Shown: positions 50,659-57,030 of the stretch, piece by piece
Layout of the letters: every line of letters starts with the position of its first letter
How positions within the stretch are numbered: position 1 is the stretch's first letter
Assembly (NCBI GenBank): GCA_036559465.1
Contig: DATBTC010000063.1
Span: 2,497-66,496 of the forward strand
Length of the DNA: 64,000 nucleotides
From: Xanthobacteraceae bacterium
GTDB taxonomy: Bacteria > Pseudomonadota > Alphaproteobacteria > Rhizobiales > Xanthobacteraceae
Direction: 5' to 3'
Program-made: the position numbers and the translations under genes
The notes under the pieces: model-generated
The model's database searches: none
What the model was told of the DNA's origin: nothing
What the model saw: only the letters and a program-made list of their open reading frames with translations

Positions 50659-51471
50659 TTATTCGCCGACCTGGATAAGCGAGCCGGCGCGCCGCGCGGA
50701 GTTCAACAGCATGGTGAAAGCGACGGACGCGGCGGCGATCCAAAGCACGTTGAGTGCGAACGCCCAAACCATCAAGTCCGCGCGAAACGTCTGCTCGAGC
50801 ATGAGCGCGCGCATGCCCTCGAACACGGAAGTCGGCGGTAAGGCCCAGGCGATCGGCTGCAGCCACGCGGGCAGCGTCGAGACCGGATAGTAGACACAAG
50901 TCAGCGGTAGAAAGATGAACATCAGACTCCACGTCAGCCCCTCAGCGCCGAGGCCGTTTCGCAGCACCAGCCCCGAACAGAACATTCCGACCGCCCAACT
51001 CGTCAGCAGCAGATTTGCGAAGAAGGCAGCGAGCGCGAAACCGAGACTCCAGAAGTTGAATCCAAAGAACAAGATCGCCAGGAACGTCACCGGAACGAGT
51101 CCGATCGCCATGCGCACTGTGCCCATGACGATCAACTGCAGCACGAACTCGAGCGGTCTGAGCGGCGAGATCATCAGGTTCGGCATATTGCGCGACCACA
51201 TCTCCTCGAGAAACGACATGGAGAAGCCGAGCTGGCCGCGAAACAGAATGTCCCACAACAGGAACGCTGCGAGGAACGTGCTCGCCGCTTGTGCCAGCAC
51301 GCCCGCCTGCGGCGCGATGCCGATCTGCAGGAAGCCCCACATCGTCATCTGCACCGCCGGCCAGTAGACGATCTCCAAGAGCCGCGGCCAAGATGAACGC
51401 AGCAGATAAAAATGCCGCAGCACCATGGCGGCGACACGCCGCGGAGAGAAAGCAGGGGAGGTTGTGCTCAT
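50659..51471 (-). CDS. ABC-2-type transporter permease
   Basis: 270 aa with about 6 TM helices. Translationally coupled (4-nt overlap) to the upstream ATPase gene. Confidence 0.8.
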   Translation of the reverse strand: MSTTSPAFSPRRVAAMVLRHFYLLRSSWPRLLEIVYWPAVQMTMWGFLQIGIAPQAGVLAQAASTFLAAFLLWDILFRGQLGFSMSFLEEMWSRNMPNLMISPLRPLEFVLQLIVMGTVRMAIGLVPVTFLAILFFGFNFWSLGFALAAFFANLLLTSWAVGMFCSGLVLRNGLGAEGLTWSLMFIFLPLTCVYYPVSTLPAWLQPIAWALPPTSVFEGMRALMLEQTFRADLMVWAFALNVLWIAAASVAFTMLLNSARRAGSLIQVGE

Positions 51472-52280
51472 GACGCGGCCTCTTTCGCGGGCTCGTCCGC
51501 CGGCTGGCGCCGGTTGCGTGCGACATCGAGGAAGACTTCCTCGAGCGTGCTGCGGCCATAGCGCGCCAACAGGCCCTCGGGTGTGTCGTCATCGACGATC
51601 TGGCCGAGCTTCATCATGATGACGCGGTCGCACAGCCGCTCGACCTCGCTCATGTTGTGGGACGCCAGCAATATCGAAGCGCCGCGCCGCTCCCGATAGC
51701 GCTCAAGATGCGTTCGCACCCAGTCGGCCGTATCGGGATCGAGCGAGGCGGTCGGCTCGTCGAGGATCAGGATTTCCGGCTCGTTGATCAGCGCCTTGGC
51801 CAGCGCAACGCGCGTCTTTTGGCCGGCCGAGAGCTTTCCGGCCGGCCGGTCGATGAATTCGGTAAGCGCCAGGTCCGCGGCCAACCGCGCGATGCGCGCG
51901 GCCACGTCCGCCACTTCATAGAGCATGGCGAACACCAAAAGATTCTGCCGCACAGTCAGCCGGTGCGGCAGGTCCACATAGGGGCTTTCCAGATTAATGC
52001 GATGGAGCACACGATAGGGCTCCTTCTCCATATCGGCGCCGAGCACCTTCACCCATCCCGCGGTCGGGGCGACGAGCCCCATCATCATGCCGATGGTCGT
52101 GGTCTTGCCGGCGCCGTTGCCGCCGAGCAGACCGGTCACCGAGCCCTGCGCCAGCGAAAACGAAATCCCCGCCACGGCGATTGTCTCGCCGTAGTGCTTG
52201 GTCAGCTGTTCGGCTTGAACAGCAGGGAGTGGATCGGCGGTCTTATTCATGGGGGCCGGAAGTCGCATGGCGAGGGGCAA
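51468..52280 (-). CDS. ABC transporter ATP-binding protein (ABC-2 exporter type)
   Basis: Walker A GGNGAGKTTT, signature LSAGQKTRVALA, Walker B ILILDEPT. The start may be the internal Met at 52250 (MNKTAD). Confidence 0.88.
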   Translation of the reverse strand: MPLAMRLPAPMNKTADPLPAVQAEQLTKHYGETIAVAGISFSLAQGSVTGLLGGNGAGKTTTIGMMMGLVAPTAGWVKVLGADMEKEPYRVLHRINLESPYVDLPHRLTVRQNLLVFAMLYEVADVAARIARLAADLALTEFIDRPAGKLSAGQKTRVALAKALINEPEILILDEPTASLDPDTADWVRTHLERYRERRGASILLASHNMSEVERLCDRVIMMKLGQIVDDDTPEGLLARYGRSTLEEVFLDVARNRRQPADEPAKEAAS

Positions 52281-52377: not shown

Positions 52378-53760
52378 ATGGCGATTGAATTCGACCGTCC
52401 CGTGACCGAGCGGCCCTTCGGACTCCGGCTCGATACGCTCGTCCGCTTGCGTTGGCTGGCGGTTGTGGGCCAATTGATCGTGCTGGTCGCGGTCTATTGG
52501 GGCCTCGGCTTCGATCTACCGATCGTGCTTGCGCTGGGTATCGTTGCGCTCACTGCCGCGATCAATGTTGCACTCGGAATCCGCTTCGCGGCCAGCCGCC
52601 GCCTGGACGATCGAGAAGCGGCCATCTTGCTCGCTTACGATATCGCTCAGCTCGCGCTTCTGCTTTATTTGACCGGCGGGATTACAAATCCTTTCTGCGT
52701 TTTGTTCCTGGCGCCGGTTCTGATTTCGGCCGCCGCACTTTCACCGCGCACCACGCTAGCGCTCGGGGCACTGACGGTCGCGTCGATCACTGCGCTCGCT
52801 TTCTTCCATTATCCGCTGCCGTGGTATCCGGGCGCCGAGGCTAAAGTCCCGGTGATCTATCGGGCCGGCATATGGCTTTCGTTGCAGCTTTCGGTCGTCT
52901 TCATCGGTCTCTATGCCTGGCGGATCGCCGAGGAAAGGAGCCAGCTCTCCGACGCGCTCGCCGCCACCGAGCTCGTGCTCGCGCGCGAGCAACATCTGTC
53001 GGCGCTGGATGGATTGGCCGCCGCGGCGGCACACGAACTCGGCACGCCGCTTTCGACCGTCGTGCTCGTCGTGCGCGAGCTCGAACGCGCCATGCCGAAG
53101 GACGGGCCGTACGCCGACGACATCAAGCTCCTGCGCGAGCAGACTGAACGCTGCCGCTCCATCCTGGCGACGCTTGCAACGCTCGGTTCGGGCGATGCGC
53201 CATTCGACCGCATGCCGCTTTCGCTCTTGTTGGAGGAAGTAGCCGCGCCCCACCGGCCGTTCGGCCTCGAGATCAAACTCGATCTTCCGAAAGAGCGCGC
53301 TGACGAGCCGATAATCGCCCGCAATCCCGGCATCATCTATGGGCTCGGAAATTTTGTCGAGAACGCCGTCGATTTCGCGCGCGGGCAGGTGGTGGTCTCC
53401 GCCCATTGGCATGCCGACACGATCGCGATCGAAATCTCCGACGACGGTCCCGGCTTCTCGCCTGCTGTGATCGACCGAATCGGAGAGCCCTACGTGACGA
53501 TGCGCGGGTCGCGGCGCGACCGTGCGGCAGTCGACGGCCCTGGTGGACTCGGCCTTGGCTTCTTCATCGCCAAGACTCTTCTGGAGCGGACCGGTGCCAA
53601 GCTCGATGTCGCCAATCGTCCGGCTCCGGCCGTGGGCGCCATCGTGCGGGTGAGCTGGCCGCGCCGTGTACTGGAACAGGCCGTAGCCGTGCTGCCGGTT
53701 CGTCCCTCGCTCCAGGACGCCGAGGCAGCCGATCTCTCCCCGCGACCGGTTGCGACGTAA
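52378..53760 (+). CDS. regB: redox-responsive sensor histidine kinase RegB/PrrB/ActS/RegS
   Basis: 460 aa with about 6 TM helices. Contains the conserved GGITNPFCVLF segment, H-box AAAAAHELGTPLSTV, and HATPase region GLGLGFFIAK. Confidence 0.85.
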   Translation: MAIEFDRPVTERPFGLRLDTLVRLRWLAVVGQLIVLVAVYWGLGFDLPIVLALGIVALTAAINVALGIRFAASRRLDDREAAILLAYDIAQLALLLYLTGGITNPFCVLFLAPVLISAAALSPRTTLALGALTVASITALAFFHYPLPWYPGAEAKVPVIYRAGIWLSLQLSVVFIGLYAWRIAEERSQLSDALAATELVLAREQHLSALDGLAAAAAHELGTPLSTVVLVVRELERAMPKDGPYADDIKLLREQTERCRSILATLATLGSGDAPFDRMPLSLLLEEVAAPHRPFGLEIKLDLPKERADEPIIARNPGIIYGLGNFVENAVDFARGQVVVSAHWHADTIAIEISDDGPGFSPAVIDRIGEPYVTMRGSRRDRAAVDGPGGLGLGFFIAKTLLERTGAKLDVANRPAPAVGAIVRVSWPRRVLEQAVAVLPVRPSLQDAEAADLSPRPVAT

Positions 53761-53905
53761 ACAACCTGGGATCTAGGCTGTTTTCTCGGGCCGACACGAC
53801 ACGCGCGGACCGCTAACCAAGATTTGGTCGGAAAGTAGGTATTATCGTAGGAAGCGCCTAGATGTAGTTATGGTTTGAAACTAATTTGCGGAGCTCCGCT
53901 TTTTG

Positions 53906-54460
53906 ATGTCCCACGCGTCCACAATCGAAAAATCACCCGATCGCAGCCTGCTGATCGTCGATGACGACAAGCCGTTCCTGCAACGCTTCGCGCGCGCGAT
54001 GGAAAGCCGCGGCTTCGACGTGAAGACGGCCGAGTCGGTGGCCGAGGGTCTGGCGCAGGTGGCCTCATCGCCGCCGGCCTTTGCGGTGGTCGACATGCGG
54101 CTCGGCGACGGCAGCGGGCTCGACGTGATCTCCGCCTTGAAGGAGCGCCGCCCCGACGCGCGCGGCATCGTGCTTACCGGCTACGGCAACATCGCGACTG
54201 CTGTGAATGCCGTCAAACTCGGCGCCGTCGATTATCTCGCCAAGCCCGCCGATGCCGACGACGTCTGCGCGGCGCTAACCGCCAAGCATGGGGATAAGGC
54301 GGTGCCGCCGGAGAACCCGATGTCGGCCGACCGCGTTCGCTGGGAACACATCCAGCGCGTCTACGAGCTGTGCGGCCGGAATGTATCAGAGACCGCGCGG
54401 CGGCTCTCCATGCATCGGCGCACGCTGCAGCGCATCCTCGCCAAGCGCGCGCCGCGCTGA
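53906..54460 (+). CDS. regA: response regulator RegA/PrrA/ActR/RegR
   Basis: Receiver domain (LLIVDDD, VVDMRLGDG, KP). The near-invariant RegA-family HTH is NVSETARRLSMHRRTLQRILAKRAPR. ATG at 53906, one codon inside the ORF-track TTG. Confidence 0.92.
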   Translation: MSHASTIEKSPDRSLLIVDDDKPFLQRFARAMESRGFDVKTAESVAEGLAQVASSPPAFAVVDMRLGDGSGLDVISALKERRPDARGIVLTGYGNIATAVNAVKLGAVDYLAKPADADDVCAALTAKHGDKAVPPENPMSADRVRWEHIQRVYELCGRNVSETARRLSMHRRTLQRILAKRAPR

Positions 54461-54467
54461 ACCGGGT

Positions 54468-55469
54468 TCAGGCCGCGGCCTTCTCCATATAGCGATAAGC
54501 GTCGGCCAAGAGAGCGCGGCCCAATGTGGTCGGGCGCGCATGCGCGGCAAAGGTCGCATGTCCTTCGAAGAACGCTTTGCGCGCGGCGCCACGGCATTCT
54601 TGCGCGACTGCTTGCTCCTCCGGATTGAGCAGGCTCGAGGCGAGCAGCCGATCGAGCGCGTAGTACATCCGTGCCGATACGAAAGTCGCGTGTGTGATGC
54701 CGTCCATCGGCCGTGGGTCGATGCGCAGCGGCGAGCGGTAACGCTCCTCGTTCGGATTATCGACCAGGGGTTCGCCGAGCGCGAGGCCGTAGAGATGCGA
54801 ATGTGCGCCTTCATGGGCAATCGCTTCGGCCATAGCGACCGCGGTCTTATGCTTGTCTGCATTGAGGAAGAGCGAGCCCCAAGCATAGAACGACGTCGCG
54901 CCATCGAGACTCATAGCCGCCTCGGAGCCATCGCATACCAGAACGATCTCTTTAACCAATGCGCGGATTTCGGCCGAGACCTCGGGCGCGCCACGGTCCA
55001 GCAATTCGAACGCGCGCTCCAGCAGGCGTGAAGCTCGATCGAAAATCGCCGTTTCTGGACGCTCCAGCACCAGTTTTGAAGCCGGGTCGGCATTGACCGA
55101 GCGCGAATAGCGGTCCGTTTCACCGGCGGTGAAGGTCTCGTCCGCATACTTTCTCAGCCGGAAGGCTGGCGCGGCGACCGGCGCTCCAGCGAGAACTTCG
55201 AGCGAGTGCGTCAAAACCTCAAGATTACCGCTGCGCGCCGCCGCGAGGCAGTCGTAATAAAGCAGAAACACGTCGGGTCGCACCGCCGGTGAGGATTCAA
55301 TCTCGGCAATGCGCGAGGTAAGCGCCGCCTCGTCCATGCTTACATGGCCGCGGCTTGCCCGAACGATTTCGCCTAGAGCTTCGGCGAGCCTATGCGCGAT
55401 GTCCCGATAAATCCGAGCACCGCGGTCGCCATCGGGCCGAAAGCTGGTTTCCGTCGTCAACAAGGACAC
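54468..55469 (-). CDS. HExxH-motif protein, resembling the aKG-HExxH-type peptide-modifying (beta-hydroxylase) family
   Basis: 333 aa, GTG start 54 nt downstream of the repeat-peptide gene on the same strand. AIAHEGAHSHLY (HExxH at 54801-54815), followed by ERYRSPLRIDPRPMDGITHATF. This matches my recollection of the HExxH...Y.(S)PWR.DPRP..G..H pattern of the TIGRFAMs mod_HExxH family. No HMM was run. Confidence 0.5.
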   Translation of the reverse strand: MSLLTTETSFRPDGDRGARIYRDIAHRLAEALGEIVRASRGHVSMDEAALTSRIAEIESSPAVRPDVFLLYYDCLAAARSGNLEVLTHSLEVLAGAPVAAPAFRLRKYADETFTAGETDRYSRSVNADPASKLVLERPETAIFDRASRLLERAFELLDRGAPEVSAEIRALVKEIVLVCDGSEAAMSLDGATSFYAWGSLFLNADKHKTAVAMAEAIAHEGAHSHLYGLALGEPLVDNPNEERYRSPLRIDPRPMDGITHATFVSARMYYALDRLLASSLLNPEEQAVAQECRGAARKAFFEGHATFAAHARPTTLGRALLADAYRYMEKAAA

Positions 55470-55523
55470 GAGATCACTCGAACTCTACAGATACCGCGGC
55501 AAGCGATCTCTCGTCCCGTACGC

Positions 55524-55892
55524 CTACTTAGGAGCGTCCTGCGAGGACCTCGGTGCGACTTTTTCGCCGATCGCGAAACCGTTCGTGCGGAGGCCGAGCA
55601 GTTTCGTCTCGTCGAGCTTAAGCGCCGCTTCGGGAGTCCCTTCCTCCTTGGTACCCACGGCATATCCGTTGGTGCGCAAGCCGAGCAGCTTCGTTTCGTC
55701 GAGCCTGAGTGCCGCTTCGCGGGGGCTGTCCTTGCCGCCCACGGCATATCCGTTGGTGCGCAAGCCCAGCAGCCTTGCTTCGTCGAGTTCGATCCTCAGC
55801 TGCTTTGGCGTCGTGGGGGTTTTAAGGCCGACCGCGTAGCCATTGGTGCGCAGGCCCAGCAATTTGCTCTCGTCGAGCTTGATAACTGACAT
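55524..55892 (-). CDS. 122-aa tandem-repeat protein, candidate multi-core peptide precursor
   Basis: ATG..TAG ORF. Four copies of LDE[SAT][KR]LLGLRTNG[YF]A[VI]G at residues 6-22, 36-52, 64-80 and 93-109, separated by 11-13-aa Pro/Thr/Lys/Glu-rich linkers. Differences between copies are mostly synonymous in this frame. No signal peptide. Confidence 0.7.
   Translation of the reverse strand: MSVIKLDESKLLGLRTNGYAVGLKTPTTPKQLRIELDEARLLGLRTNGYAVGGKDSPREAALRLDETKLLGLRTNGYAVGTKEEGTPEAALKLDETKLLGLRTNGFAIGEKVAPRSSQDAPK
55566..55877 (-). repeat. four tandem ~84-90-nt coding repeats
   Basis: Spacing between copies is 30, 28 and 29 codons. The conserved 51-nt block reads CTC GAC GAR nnn AAR/AGG YTG CTS GGC YTS CGC ACS AAY GGN TWY GCS RTS GGY in all four copies. 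Confidence 0.9.
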
Positions 55893-56034
55893 TCACTCAG
55901 CCCCCGGCAGAAACCCTGGGACGGGCCGATTGCTGACCCTTCCCCCAAGGGCATGCTAGCAACGGCGTTGGGCCGCTTCAACCGGGTGGCTAGGTCGCGC
56001 TCGGCGCCCGGCTGCGGAAACGCATAGGTTTCGC

Positions 56035-57030
56035 ATGATCGTTTTTCTTGTGACGCCGCCCCACTATTACACTTTAAAGGCTGTGGAAAAGGCGCTGCCG
56101 CGCGTCGTTCGGGTCATCGATTACCACGAGTTCTTCGCGGCCGACCGCCTGCTGGGCGGCACTTATATCTTCTGCGATCTGGAGCGGCTTTCGGAGCACG
56201 AGCTGCGAATTGCGGCGGAGGCCTATCGACAATTGGCGGCGCAAGCCGGAGTCCGGGCGCTCAATGATCCCGCGCGCGCGCTCACTCGCTACGCACTTCT
56301 GCGCGCGCTGTTCGAAGCCGGGATCAACGATTTCGACGTCTATCGCGCGGACGCTTTACCCAAGCCGCGGCGCTTTCCCGTATTTGTTCGCTGGGAGCCA
56401 GGCCACGACAAGCCGTCCGAACTCCTGCACGACCAGACAGCGCTGGACGCGGCCTTGGCGGAGCTCGTGGTCAAGGGTGAGCCGTTGCGGGGCATGCTCG
56501 TCACCGAGTATGCGGCGGAGCCGGTGATTCCCGGCGTGTTCCGCAGGCATGCCACGTTCCGGATCGCGGACGAGTTTCAGCTATTCGCCCCTTCATCGGA
56601 ACGCGATTGGCGCGTCAAATATGGCGAACGCGGACTCGTGAGCGAGGACATCTATCTCGACGATGAACGCGCCATGCAGGAGAACCGTTTCGGAGAAACT
56701 TTGCGGCGCACGTTCGAGATCGCCGGCGTGGAGTATGGGCGGGCCGATTTCGGTCTGGTCGGCGGCAAACTGCAAATCTACGAGATCAACACCAACCCCA
56801 GTGTTGGAGTTCCGGCACCGCACGACTCGCCCGCGCGAACTCGCGCGCTTGCCCGCTGCTGGTCCTGGTATTTGGAGAAAATCGCCGCGCTGGATACGGC
56901 CACCTGCGCCCGGAAAATCAAGATCGATTCGCCGCTGCTGTCGCTCTACCGAAGCGCATTGACAACGAAATATCGCACCCTATTCGGTTGGCGCTTGCCC
57001 AGAGGCGACCGGCTGATACGCCGGCCCTGA
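56035..57030 (+). CDS. ATP-grasp fold ligase (substrate unknown)
   Basis: 331 aa, divergent from the repeat-peptide gene across a 142-nt spacer. LNDPARALTRYALLRALFEAGI, FPVFVRWEPGH, MLVTEYA and YGRADFGLVGGKLQIYEINTNP follow the order of ATP-grasp motifs. The last contains the E-x-N Mg/ATP motif at about 56782-56790. Confidence 0.6.
   Translation: MIVFLVTPPHYYTLKAVEKALPRVVRVIDYHEFFAADRLLGGTYIFCDLERLSEHELRIAAEAYRQLAAQAGVRALNDPARALTRYALLRALFEAGINDFDVYRADALPKPRRFPVFVRWEPGHDKPSELLHDQTALDAALAELVVKGEPLRGMLVTEYAAEPVIPGVFRRHATFRIADEFQLFAPSSERDWRVKYGERGLVSEDIYLDDERAMQENRFGETLRRTFEIAGVEYGRADFGLVGGKLQIYEINTNPSVGVPAPHDSPARTRALARCWSWYLEKIAALDTATCARKIKIDSPLLSLYRSALTTKYRTLFGWRLPRGDRLIRRP

Follow-up and report, generated by a model that had tools for sequence, protein, structure and literature searches.

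A four-cassette repeat peptide as the probable substrate of a conserved HExxH hydroxylase and ATP-grasp ligase system in a Xanthobacteraceae bacterium

Results

Gene content of the locus

We analysed a 64,000-nucleotide stretch of DNA (the window) from Xanthobacteraceae bacterium (GenBank assembly GCA_036559465.1, contig DATBTC010000063.1, forward-strand positions 2,497 to 66,496), in which a short open reading frame (ORF) on the minus strand encodes a 122-residue peptide with four repeated units, MSVIKLDESKLLGLRTNGYAVGLKTPTTPKQLRIELDEARLLGLRTNGYAVGGKDSPREAALRLDETKLLGLRTNGYAVGTKEEGTPEAALKLDETKLLGLRTNGFAIGEKVAPRSSQDAPK. The gene for an α-ketoglutarate HExxH-type (αKG-HExxH) peptide β-hydroxylase begins 54 nt downstream of its stop codon on the same strand, and a terminator scan of the locus found no terminator-like site between the two. 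On the other side, across a 142-bp intergenic region presumed to hold the promoters of both genes, lies a divergently transcribed gene for a predicted ATP-grasp ligase (Table 1). A promoter scan of the intergenic region found no match to the sigma-70 consensus, and an Rfam scan of the locus returned nothing relevant. From this arrangement and from related loci in other bacteria, we consider it likely that the ORF encodes a substrate (precursor) peptide and belongs to a conserved cassette of three genes, for the precursor, an αKG-HExxH hydroxylase and an ATP-grasp ligase. The system is an uncharacterised variant of the HExxH-type systems for peptides that are made by the ribosome and modified post-translationally (RiPPs), here in a leader-plus-core cassette form.

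Table 1. Positions of the genes and features at the locus, in window coordinates
Feature	Position	Strand	Basis or remark
Precursor gene, 122-aa peptide, four predicted leader-plus-core cassettes	55524..55892	-	ATG-start ORF
Cassette 1, residues 4-24, IKLDESKLLGLRTNGYAVGLK	55821..55883	-	
Cassette 2, residues 34-54, IELDEARLLGLRTNGYAVGGK	55731..55793	-	
Cassette 3, residues 62-82, LRLDETKLLGLRTNGYAVGTK	55647..55709	-	
Cassette 4, residues 91-111, LKLDETKLLGLRTNGFAIGEK	55560..55622	-	
αKG-HExxH-type peptide β-hydroxylase, 333 aa, GTG start at 55469	54468..55469	-	TIGR04267
HEGAH metal-binding motif of the hydroxylase, H219-E220-x-x-H223	54801..54815	-	
Divergent intergenic region between precursor and ATP-grasp genes, 142 bp, presumed promoters	55893..56034	.	
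ATP-grasp ligase, 331 aa, divergently transcribed	56035..57030	+	AlphaFold2/Foldseek, profile search
RegB/RegA (ActS/ActR) redox two-component pair	52378..54460	+	Immediately beyond the hydroxylase
ABC-2 exporter pair (ABC_tran + ABC2_membrane)	50659..52280	-	About 2.2 kb from the hydroxylase, beyond RegB/RegA

The four units are old copies under purifying selection

A sequence-only reading of this DNA had described four copies of a 51-nt block that differ almost only at synonymous sites. All four blocks are present letter for letter (55827-55877, 55737-55787, 55653-55703 and 55566-55616, minus strand), and the three linkers that it quoted are correct. Where it had counted at least 11 silently varying codons we find 12, the additional one being a Lys codon (AAA/AAG), and the residue changes at four codons, as it had stated. 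Nineteen columns of the block vary, with 4, 3 and 12 of them at codon positions 1, 2 and 3, respectively (hypergeometric P=7.6e-4).

We calculated the proportions of nonsynonymous and synonymous differences (pN and pS) by the Nei-Gojobori method. Pooled over the four units, pN/pS is 0.15 in the frame of the ORF. The remaining minus-strand frames give 1.3 and 4.5, and those on the plus strand 0.35 (a frame that contains a stop), 1.4 and 3.9. The minus-strand frame is therefore the coding frame, as proposed from the letters alone, and since the ratio is low only there, a 165-residue ORF on the plus strand (55392..55889) is a shadow ORF. Between individual units pS ranges from 0.21 to 0.85 and pN from 0.04 to 0.15, and dN/dS, a check that the sequence-only reading had called for, is 0.05-0.22 where it can be computed. 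Most pairs are near saturation at synonymous sites (pS 0.5-0.85) with pN not exceeding 0.15, so the units are old copies kept by purifying selection on each of them, again as that reading had argued. Units 2 and 3 are the closest pair (pS 0.21); they are the most recent copies and reflect some later duplication or gene conversion. Tandem Repeats Finder reports just 2.4 copies (period 84, 81% matches), an undercount that results from the high synonymous divergence.

The conserved block of 17 residues that had been described is real, but the unit is longer. It comprises 21 residues, [IL]-x-L-D-E-x-[KR]-L-L-G-L-R-T-N-G-[YF]-A-[VI]-G-x-K, and extends from the hydrophobic residue two positions before LD to an invariant Lys two positions after the final Gly. 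The '(A)L[KR] lead-in' previously assigned to the linkers is indeed present; it corresponds to the hydrophobic-x pair ahead of LD in the family motif described below and is part of the unit. In the window, every cassette contains a single LDE and a single GxK Lys, the latter invariant, and the distance between the two is fixed.

The 122-residue precursor shows neither a signal peptide nor any known domain. Searches against Pfam gave only sub-threshold noise (DUF3933, 17 bits against a cut-off of 25; APP_amyloid, 15.6 against 27) and those against NCBIfam gave nothing, so that no structural repeat family unrelated to peptide natural products is matched in either library. An AlphaFold2 model computed from the single sequence has low confidence (predicted local distance difference test, pLDDT, 42) and contains short strands only. 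This model speaks neither for nor against local helices, and the amphipathic helix that had been suggested for the repeat finds no support in it.

The flanking genes encode an HExxH hydroxylase and a predicted ATP-grasp ligase

The hydroxylase matches NCBIfam model TIGR04267 with 97.1 bits (cut-off 40, E=1.2e-27) over profile positions 1-176 of 177, and a profile of 25 of its homologues matches the solved structure of ChlH (8s5f, E=2.3e-9). H219, E220 and H223 of the HExxH motif are invariant in these 25 homologues, as are S246-R249, D251, R253 and H260. A conserved SPLRxDxRP...HAT block downstream of HExxH aligns to the same ChlH structure. On these profile matches we assign the protein to the αKG-HExxH family (TIGR04267 / IPR026337). 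Public records call it as a 289-residue protein from an internal ATG; the GTG that gives 333 residues is the likelier start, because homologues align over the 44 residues that it adds at the N-terminus, among them a conserved FxPD.

The protein encoded upstream matches no Pfam or NCBIfam model, even at permissive thresholds, and none of the graspetide or microviridin ligase models among them. Its AlphaFold2 model has a pLDDT of 91 and a predicted template modelling (TM) score of 0.88, and Foldseek pairs this model with many ATP-grasp structures at a probability of 1.00. The top matches are Ddl, RimK, LysX and ArgX (E ~1e-9 to 1e-10, TM ~0.5, 13-17% identity). A profile of the ligase also matches the C-terminus of Ddl (E=4.8e-4), with GRADF...YEINTNP aligned to the Mg/ATP site of Ddl, and 30 homologues share D238, E250, N252 and K195 without exception. 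Fold prediction and the conserved Mg/ATP-site residues both place the protein in the ATP-grasp superfamily.

The three genes are linked in many phyla

With the hydroxylase alignment, a scan that covered each GTDB species by one genome gave at least 250 relatives. We examined 81 loci, namely those of 80 of these relatives (L007-L086) and the locus (L006) of a remote relative of the precursor, P0122; they come from Proteobacteria, Acidobacteriota, Verrucomicrobiota, Myxococcota and Planctomycetota. In 62 of the 81, an ATP-grasp gene of the window type lies within 4 kb of the HExxH gene, either divergent and upstream of the hydroxylase gene or immediately downstream of it, and an ATP-grasp gene of any kind is present in at least 71. 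Nine of the loci without the window-type ligase (L022, L032, L039, L040, L041, L052, L062, L068 and L085) encode instead a protein of about 600 residues with homology to cyanophycin synthetase (NF010623, E=6e-74) over the N and G (ATP-grasp) domains but lacking an M domain. Because the ligase has been replaced non-orthologously in these nine loci, the ATP-grasp ligation step appears integral to the pathway.

The linkage also holds in the opposite direction: starting from three homologues of the ATP-grasp protein (from a Solemya symbiont, Phreatobacter and a metagenome-assembled genome, MAG), we found a small ORF and an HExxH gene in divergent orientation in all three. All-against-all clustering of the ORFs in the 81 loci revealed no other conserved neighbour gene, including no protease, exporter or RiPP recognition element (RRE) protein.

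The window ORF iterates the putative docking motif of a precursor family

Most of the loci carry an ORF of 45-120 residues directly upstream of the hydroxylase gene and on the same strand. Among 56 such precursors, the N-terminus holds the motif [IV]-x-L-D-x-S-[K/R]-L-L-G-F-[K/R/D]-[I/Q/L], which is followed by core repeats with the consensus G-A-K-[I/V/L]-G-x-K-[V/P]-G (173 cores). A hidden Markov model (HMM) of the N-terminal motif, built from the other loci and searched against all six-frame segments, has matches in 56 of the 81 loci (E<0.01), each to a small ORF upstream of the HExxH gene and on its strand. On the ORF in the window the same model finds four domains (E=4e-7). Visual inspection revealed more diverged precursors in Hyphomicrobium, Mesorhizobium and others. 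Of the 56 precursors, 51 have D at motif position 4 and the rest E, Q or N; past the leader, the median numbers of Lys and of acidic residues are 6 and 2. Judged from these alignments, the majority architecture is one N-terminal docking motif followed by several K-[I/V/L]-G-x-K sites.

By the same comparison, the window holds four iterations of a unit that reads as the docking motif (xLDxx[K/R]LLG) with one [VI]GxK site at a fixed distance after it. Since LDExKLLGL corresponds to the single N-terminal, leader-like motif of most family members, the units are better described as leader-plus-core cassettes than as bare cores. The sequence-only reading had suggested a multi-core precursor, and the genomic context agrees with it: the ORF adjoins genes for a peptide β-hydroxylase and an ATP-grasp ligase, and the trio with small repeat ORFs recurs across many phyla.

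The cassette architecture is also seen, at the level of sequence, in several other Hyphomicrobiales. Precursors of this type have two units in L016 and L025, three in L029 and in L094 (ISVDLDTLLKVSSTGVSVGLKP), four in Bauldia (L020) and five in L006 (P0122), and those of three Hyphomicrobium loci (L014, L017 and L028) carry ALxxRSGTKVGKPP units. Between cassettes, pN/pS is 0.14-0.47 in all of these precursors, and between orthologous first cassettes it is 0.00-0.49. The sole close orthologue is a fragment (L087, with a hydroxylase 62% identical to that in the window), in which the reading frame is kept and no stop interrupts it: it reads ...SLRTNGTAVGNK... and ends ...SLRTNGTAVGNKIGGLAKSKRA before the stop codon.

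An identical precursor protein is annotated on 10 public metagenome contigs, where the synteny is the same as in the window. Five metagenome contigs (L001-L005) are at least 99.9% identical to the window with no difference in the precursor, and carry no evolutionary information. A word-indexed protein search with the precursor returned no match, not even to itself despite those 10 contigs, which we took as a failure of sensitivity and not as absence. That search and the 50%-representative library both missed the precursor's own cluster, and short repeat peptides seem to be under-recovered in such searches. Two metagenome scans, with the precursor and the hydroxylase as queries, gave no match that passed confirmation. 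In an exhaustive phmmer search, P0121 was rejected as a spurious match to a eukaryote-like, low-complexity GLKVDGKEAL repeat.

Some family members depart from the common pattern. The precursors of L022, L039, L052 and L062 have K-[IV]-G-K cores with nothing between G and K, and all four loci have the cyanophycin-synthetase-like ligase, which suggests that core spacing co-varies with ligase type. Four loci from Dongiaceae and Rhodospirillaceae MAGs (L034, L057, L067 and L072) have three to four tandem precursor genes upstream of one hydroxylase gene; this set includes a precursor of about 150 residues with two leader motifs, LDRSKLLGFDQ and LDW[ST]HLLGFDQ, separated by a conserved spacer, TSVETASGFRST. 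In a Novosphingobium MAG (L083, 165..413) the cores are variants, GAKNG and GSKDG, in which a polar residue replaces Ile/Val/Leu between K and G.

Discussion

Proposed mechanism

The genetics of the system is solid, and the system is compact and testable; its chemistry and biological role we infer. Precursor and hydroxylase would be co-transcribed, and each cassette would bind through its xLDxx[K/R]LLG segment. The chemistry would consist of hydroxylation and ATP-dependent amide formation, with the amide probably at Lys: the Fe(II)/αKG HExxH enzyme would hydroxylate one side chain per cassette, and the ATP-grasp enzyme would form an amide bond that involves the invariant Lys of GxK. With docking motif and single [V/I]-G-x-K site multiplied together, one translation product would present four independently recognisable substrates, which would explain why each unit is separately under purifying selection while the linkers drift.

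Enzymes of the αKG-HExxH family were recognised as peptide hydroxylases only in 2024. The best candidate for the hydroxylation site is the near-invariant Asp of LD at motif position 4, because this position holds D, E, Q or N and Asp, Gln and Asn are among the reported substrates; characterised family members hydroxylate His, Asp, Phe, Gln/Asn and Pro (PMC12636437, PMC13060819). The Asn of TNG, the Val/Ile of [VI]G or a nearby Pro would be alternative sites, and the Asp may have a pure recognition role. Reactions of HExxH enzymes 'at present cannot be predicted' (PMC13060819).

For the ligase we favour a reaction that adds a free carboxylate or an amino acid to Lys over macrocyclisation, though our confidence in both is low. 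Macrocyclisation is placed lower because most family members combine one LD with many Lys and because the ligase is akin to Ddl, RimK, LysX and the G domain of cyanophycin synthetase (CphA). A more far-reaching version of this proposal, which we hold to be possible but doubtful, is that the trio represents a new, phylogenetically broad RiPP-like class. In such a class the ATP-grasp enzyme would acylate the Lys ε-amines of K-φ-G-x-K (φ, hydrophobic) with a free carboxylate (Asp or Glu) and would not be a macrocyclase, and the HExxH enzyme would then make β-hydroxy acid groups. The product would be a poly-branched, possibly metal-chelating peptide, and Hyphomicrobiales would have evolved a bacterial precursor of leader-plus-core cassettes by iterating the recognition motif itself. 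Since no protease or exporter is conserved, the modified small protein would act intact inside the cell.

Alternative explanations

Several observations weigh against a multi-substrate precursor as we propose it. With no protease or exporter conserved alongside the cassette, release of four separate peptides, and secretion, are unsupported, and later separation of the units would be conjecture. About 8-10 of the 81 loci have no recognisable precursor, and the only close orthologue is limited to a fragment of 32 codons (L087). Sequences of the window type are rare: the exhaustive phmmer search covered 1.84 billion representative proteins and gave one true remote relative, the five-unit precursor P0122 beside an HExxH gene. 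The ligase, moreover, resembles amino-acid ligases (Ddl, RimK, LysX) and not known peptide macrocyclases, so that its role on the peptide and its partner substrate are a guess. The same missing protease and exporter could point to a small repeat-fold or intrinsically disordered protein with a structural or regulatory role of its own, which would be no enzyme substrate and would adjoin the enzyme genes incidentally; at 122 residues it is long for a RiPP precursor, and the flanking RegB/RegA genes are housekeeping regulators. We regard this as very improbable, since small ORFs with the motif accompany HExxH and ATP-grasp genes in different phyla and in two gene orders. No known repeat family is matched either, and the model (pLDDT 42, from the single sequence only) shows no confident fold. 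That the repeat is a recent tandem duplication or non-coding, with no selection on each unit and an ORF that is an accident of high G+C content, might seem plausible where high-GC DNA yields many long shadow ORFs and units 2 and 3 are closer than the other pairs (pS 0.21). This explanation is already refuted by the codon-position pattern, with variable columns concentrated at third positions; pS of 0.5-0.85 at pN of at most 0.15 for most pairs, and a motif common to distant genomes, argue in the same direction.

A rival with somewhat more to recommend it, although we still think it unlikely, is a graspetide-like system in which the 17-residue block is core and not leader. Here the ATP-grasp enzyme would join the Asp (or Glu) of LDE to the GxK Lys of the same cassette, and the resulting side-chain macrolactams, four rings of about 18 residues, would then be decorated by the hydroxylase. 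ATP-grasp enzymes form such side-chain bonds in microviridins, the cassettes in the window pair one LDE with one invariant GxK Lys at fixed spacing, and motif and GxK also occur 1:1 in other cassette-type precursors. Yet most family members have a single LD motif, with medians of 6 for Lys and 2 for acidic residues after the leader, so that 1:1 crosslinking of Asp and Lys cannot hold for the family as a whole. In addition, the ligase matches none of the NCBIfam or Pfam models for graspetide or microviridin ligases, its closest folds are Ddl, RimK and LysX, and nine loci swap in an enzyme like the cyanophycin synthetase G domain, which is of the amino-acid-adding type.

Comparison with known systems

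The αKG-HExxH RiPP pathways, which include the ChlBH/ChlH triceptides, BpmH of biphenomycin, PflC/PosC and PesO of nitrilobacillin, use enzymes of the same family (TIGR04267/IPR026337) with the same HExxH iron site, and like the window they have a small precursor gene adjoining the enzyme gene. They differ in the partners: ChlBH is fused to a radical-SAM protein, BpmH works with an MNIO, PflC/PosC with an MNIO-nitroreductase, and PesO with an MNIO and an Asn-synthetase-like protein, whereas the HExxH enzyme in the window is stand-alone and its only constant partner is the ATP-grasp ligase. The precursor family, with its LDxSKLLGF leader and K-φ-G-x-K cores, is unrelated to the published HExxH precursors. 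Pfam and NCBIfam hold no curated model for the precursor family or the ligase. A literature search for HExxH and ATP-grasp genes with such a precursor, or for the motif strings, found no description; the 2024 Nat. Chem. ChlBH neighbourhood survey lay outside that search.

Graspetides resemble the system in having an ATP-grasp gene beside a short precursor with repeated core motifs and no separate RRE protein. The class includes the microviridins and multi-core members such as plesiocin; in its known precursors it is the core that recurs, after a single leader, and not the leader motif. In contrast to graspetide ligases, the enzyme in the window matches no graspetide model and looks like Ddl, RimK or LysX, and the cores of the family are rich in Lys and Gly and poor in Asp/Glu/Thr/Ser pairs, although the cassettes in the window do hold D/E and K at fixed spacing.

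Cassette precursors with several recognition elements are also known. In the cyanobactin precursor PatE each core is flanked by recognition sequences, and the dikaritin precursor UstA has many repeats of spacer and YAIG core. The window ORF shares with them several units per product, each core with its own recognition element beside it, and units that are kept while spacers drift. The enzymes are different, however, with a heterocyclase, proteases and DUF3328 oxidases in those systems against HExxH and ATP-grasp proteins in the window, and no cassette-cleaving protease is conserved with loci of the window type. The tetrapeptides YAVG (three cassettes) and FAIG (one) resemble the YAIG/YVIG cores in the many cassettes of UstA, the fungal ustiloxin precursor. 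This likeness is probably a coincidence: where the cassettes have Tyr-Ala, the family consensus has Ala-Lys.

The best structural neighbours of the ligase (RimK and LysX/ArgX, which uses the carrier LysW) and the homologue of the alternative ligase (the G domain of cyanophycin synthetase) likewise act on a small dedicated protein or peptide. PGM1 of pheganomycin is another ATP-grasp enzyme that ligates amino acids to peptides. RimK/LysX-type enzymes act on the C-terminal or side-chain carboxylate of an acidic tail, whereas the family precursors are Lys-rich with no conserved acidic tail.

The locus thus points to a compact, three-gene, stand-alone HExxH system that is apparently unstudied. It is widespread, with a hydroxylase relative encoded in at least 250 of the scanned species genomes, and combines a ligase that lacks a family model with a precursor family that has a clear docking motif. 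The four-cassette form is a natural experiment on leader-core spacing and recognition, and as a substrate for heterologous reconstitution it would conveniently offer four reporters per molecule.

Neighbouring genes and other contexts

A hydroxylase homologue with 44% identity (P0125, L088-L091) lies beside a giant Big_13-repeat protein, with no ATP-grasp gene and no recognisable precursor nearby; it may represent an orphan or a family member with another gene organisation. In the window, the ligase gene is adjoined by genes for a VWA protein and an alpha/beta hydrolase. These two and the ABC-2 exporter were considered as members of the system and rejected, as they are not conserved with the trio in other genomes; the exporter may have a local role in export. 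The hydroxylase orthologue of L087 also abuts a response-regulator gene (L087 1110..1661), and the synteny with RegB/RegA is lineage-local and not seen in the wider family.

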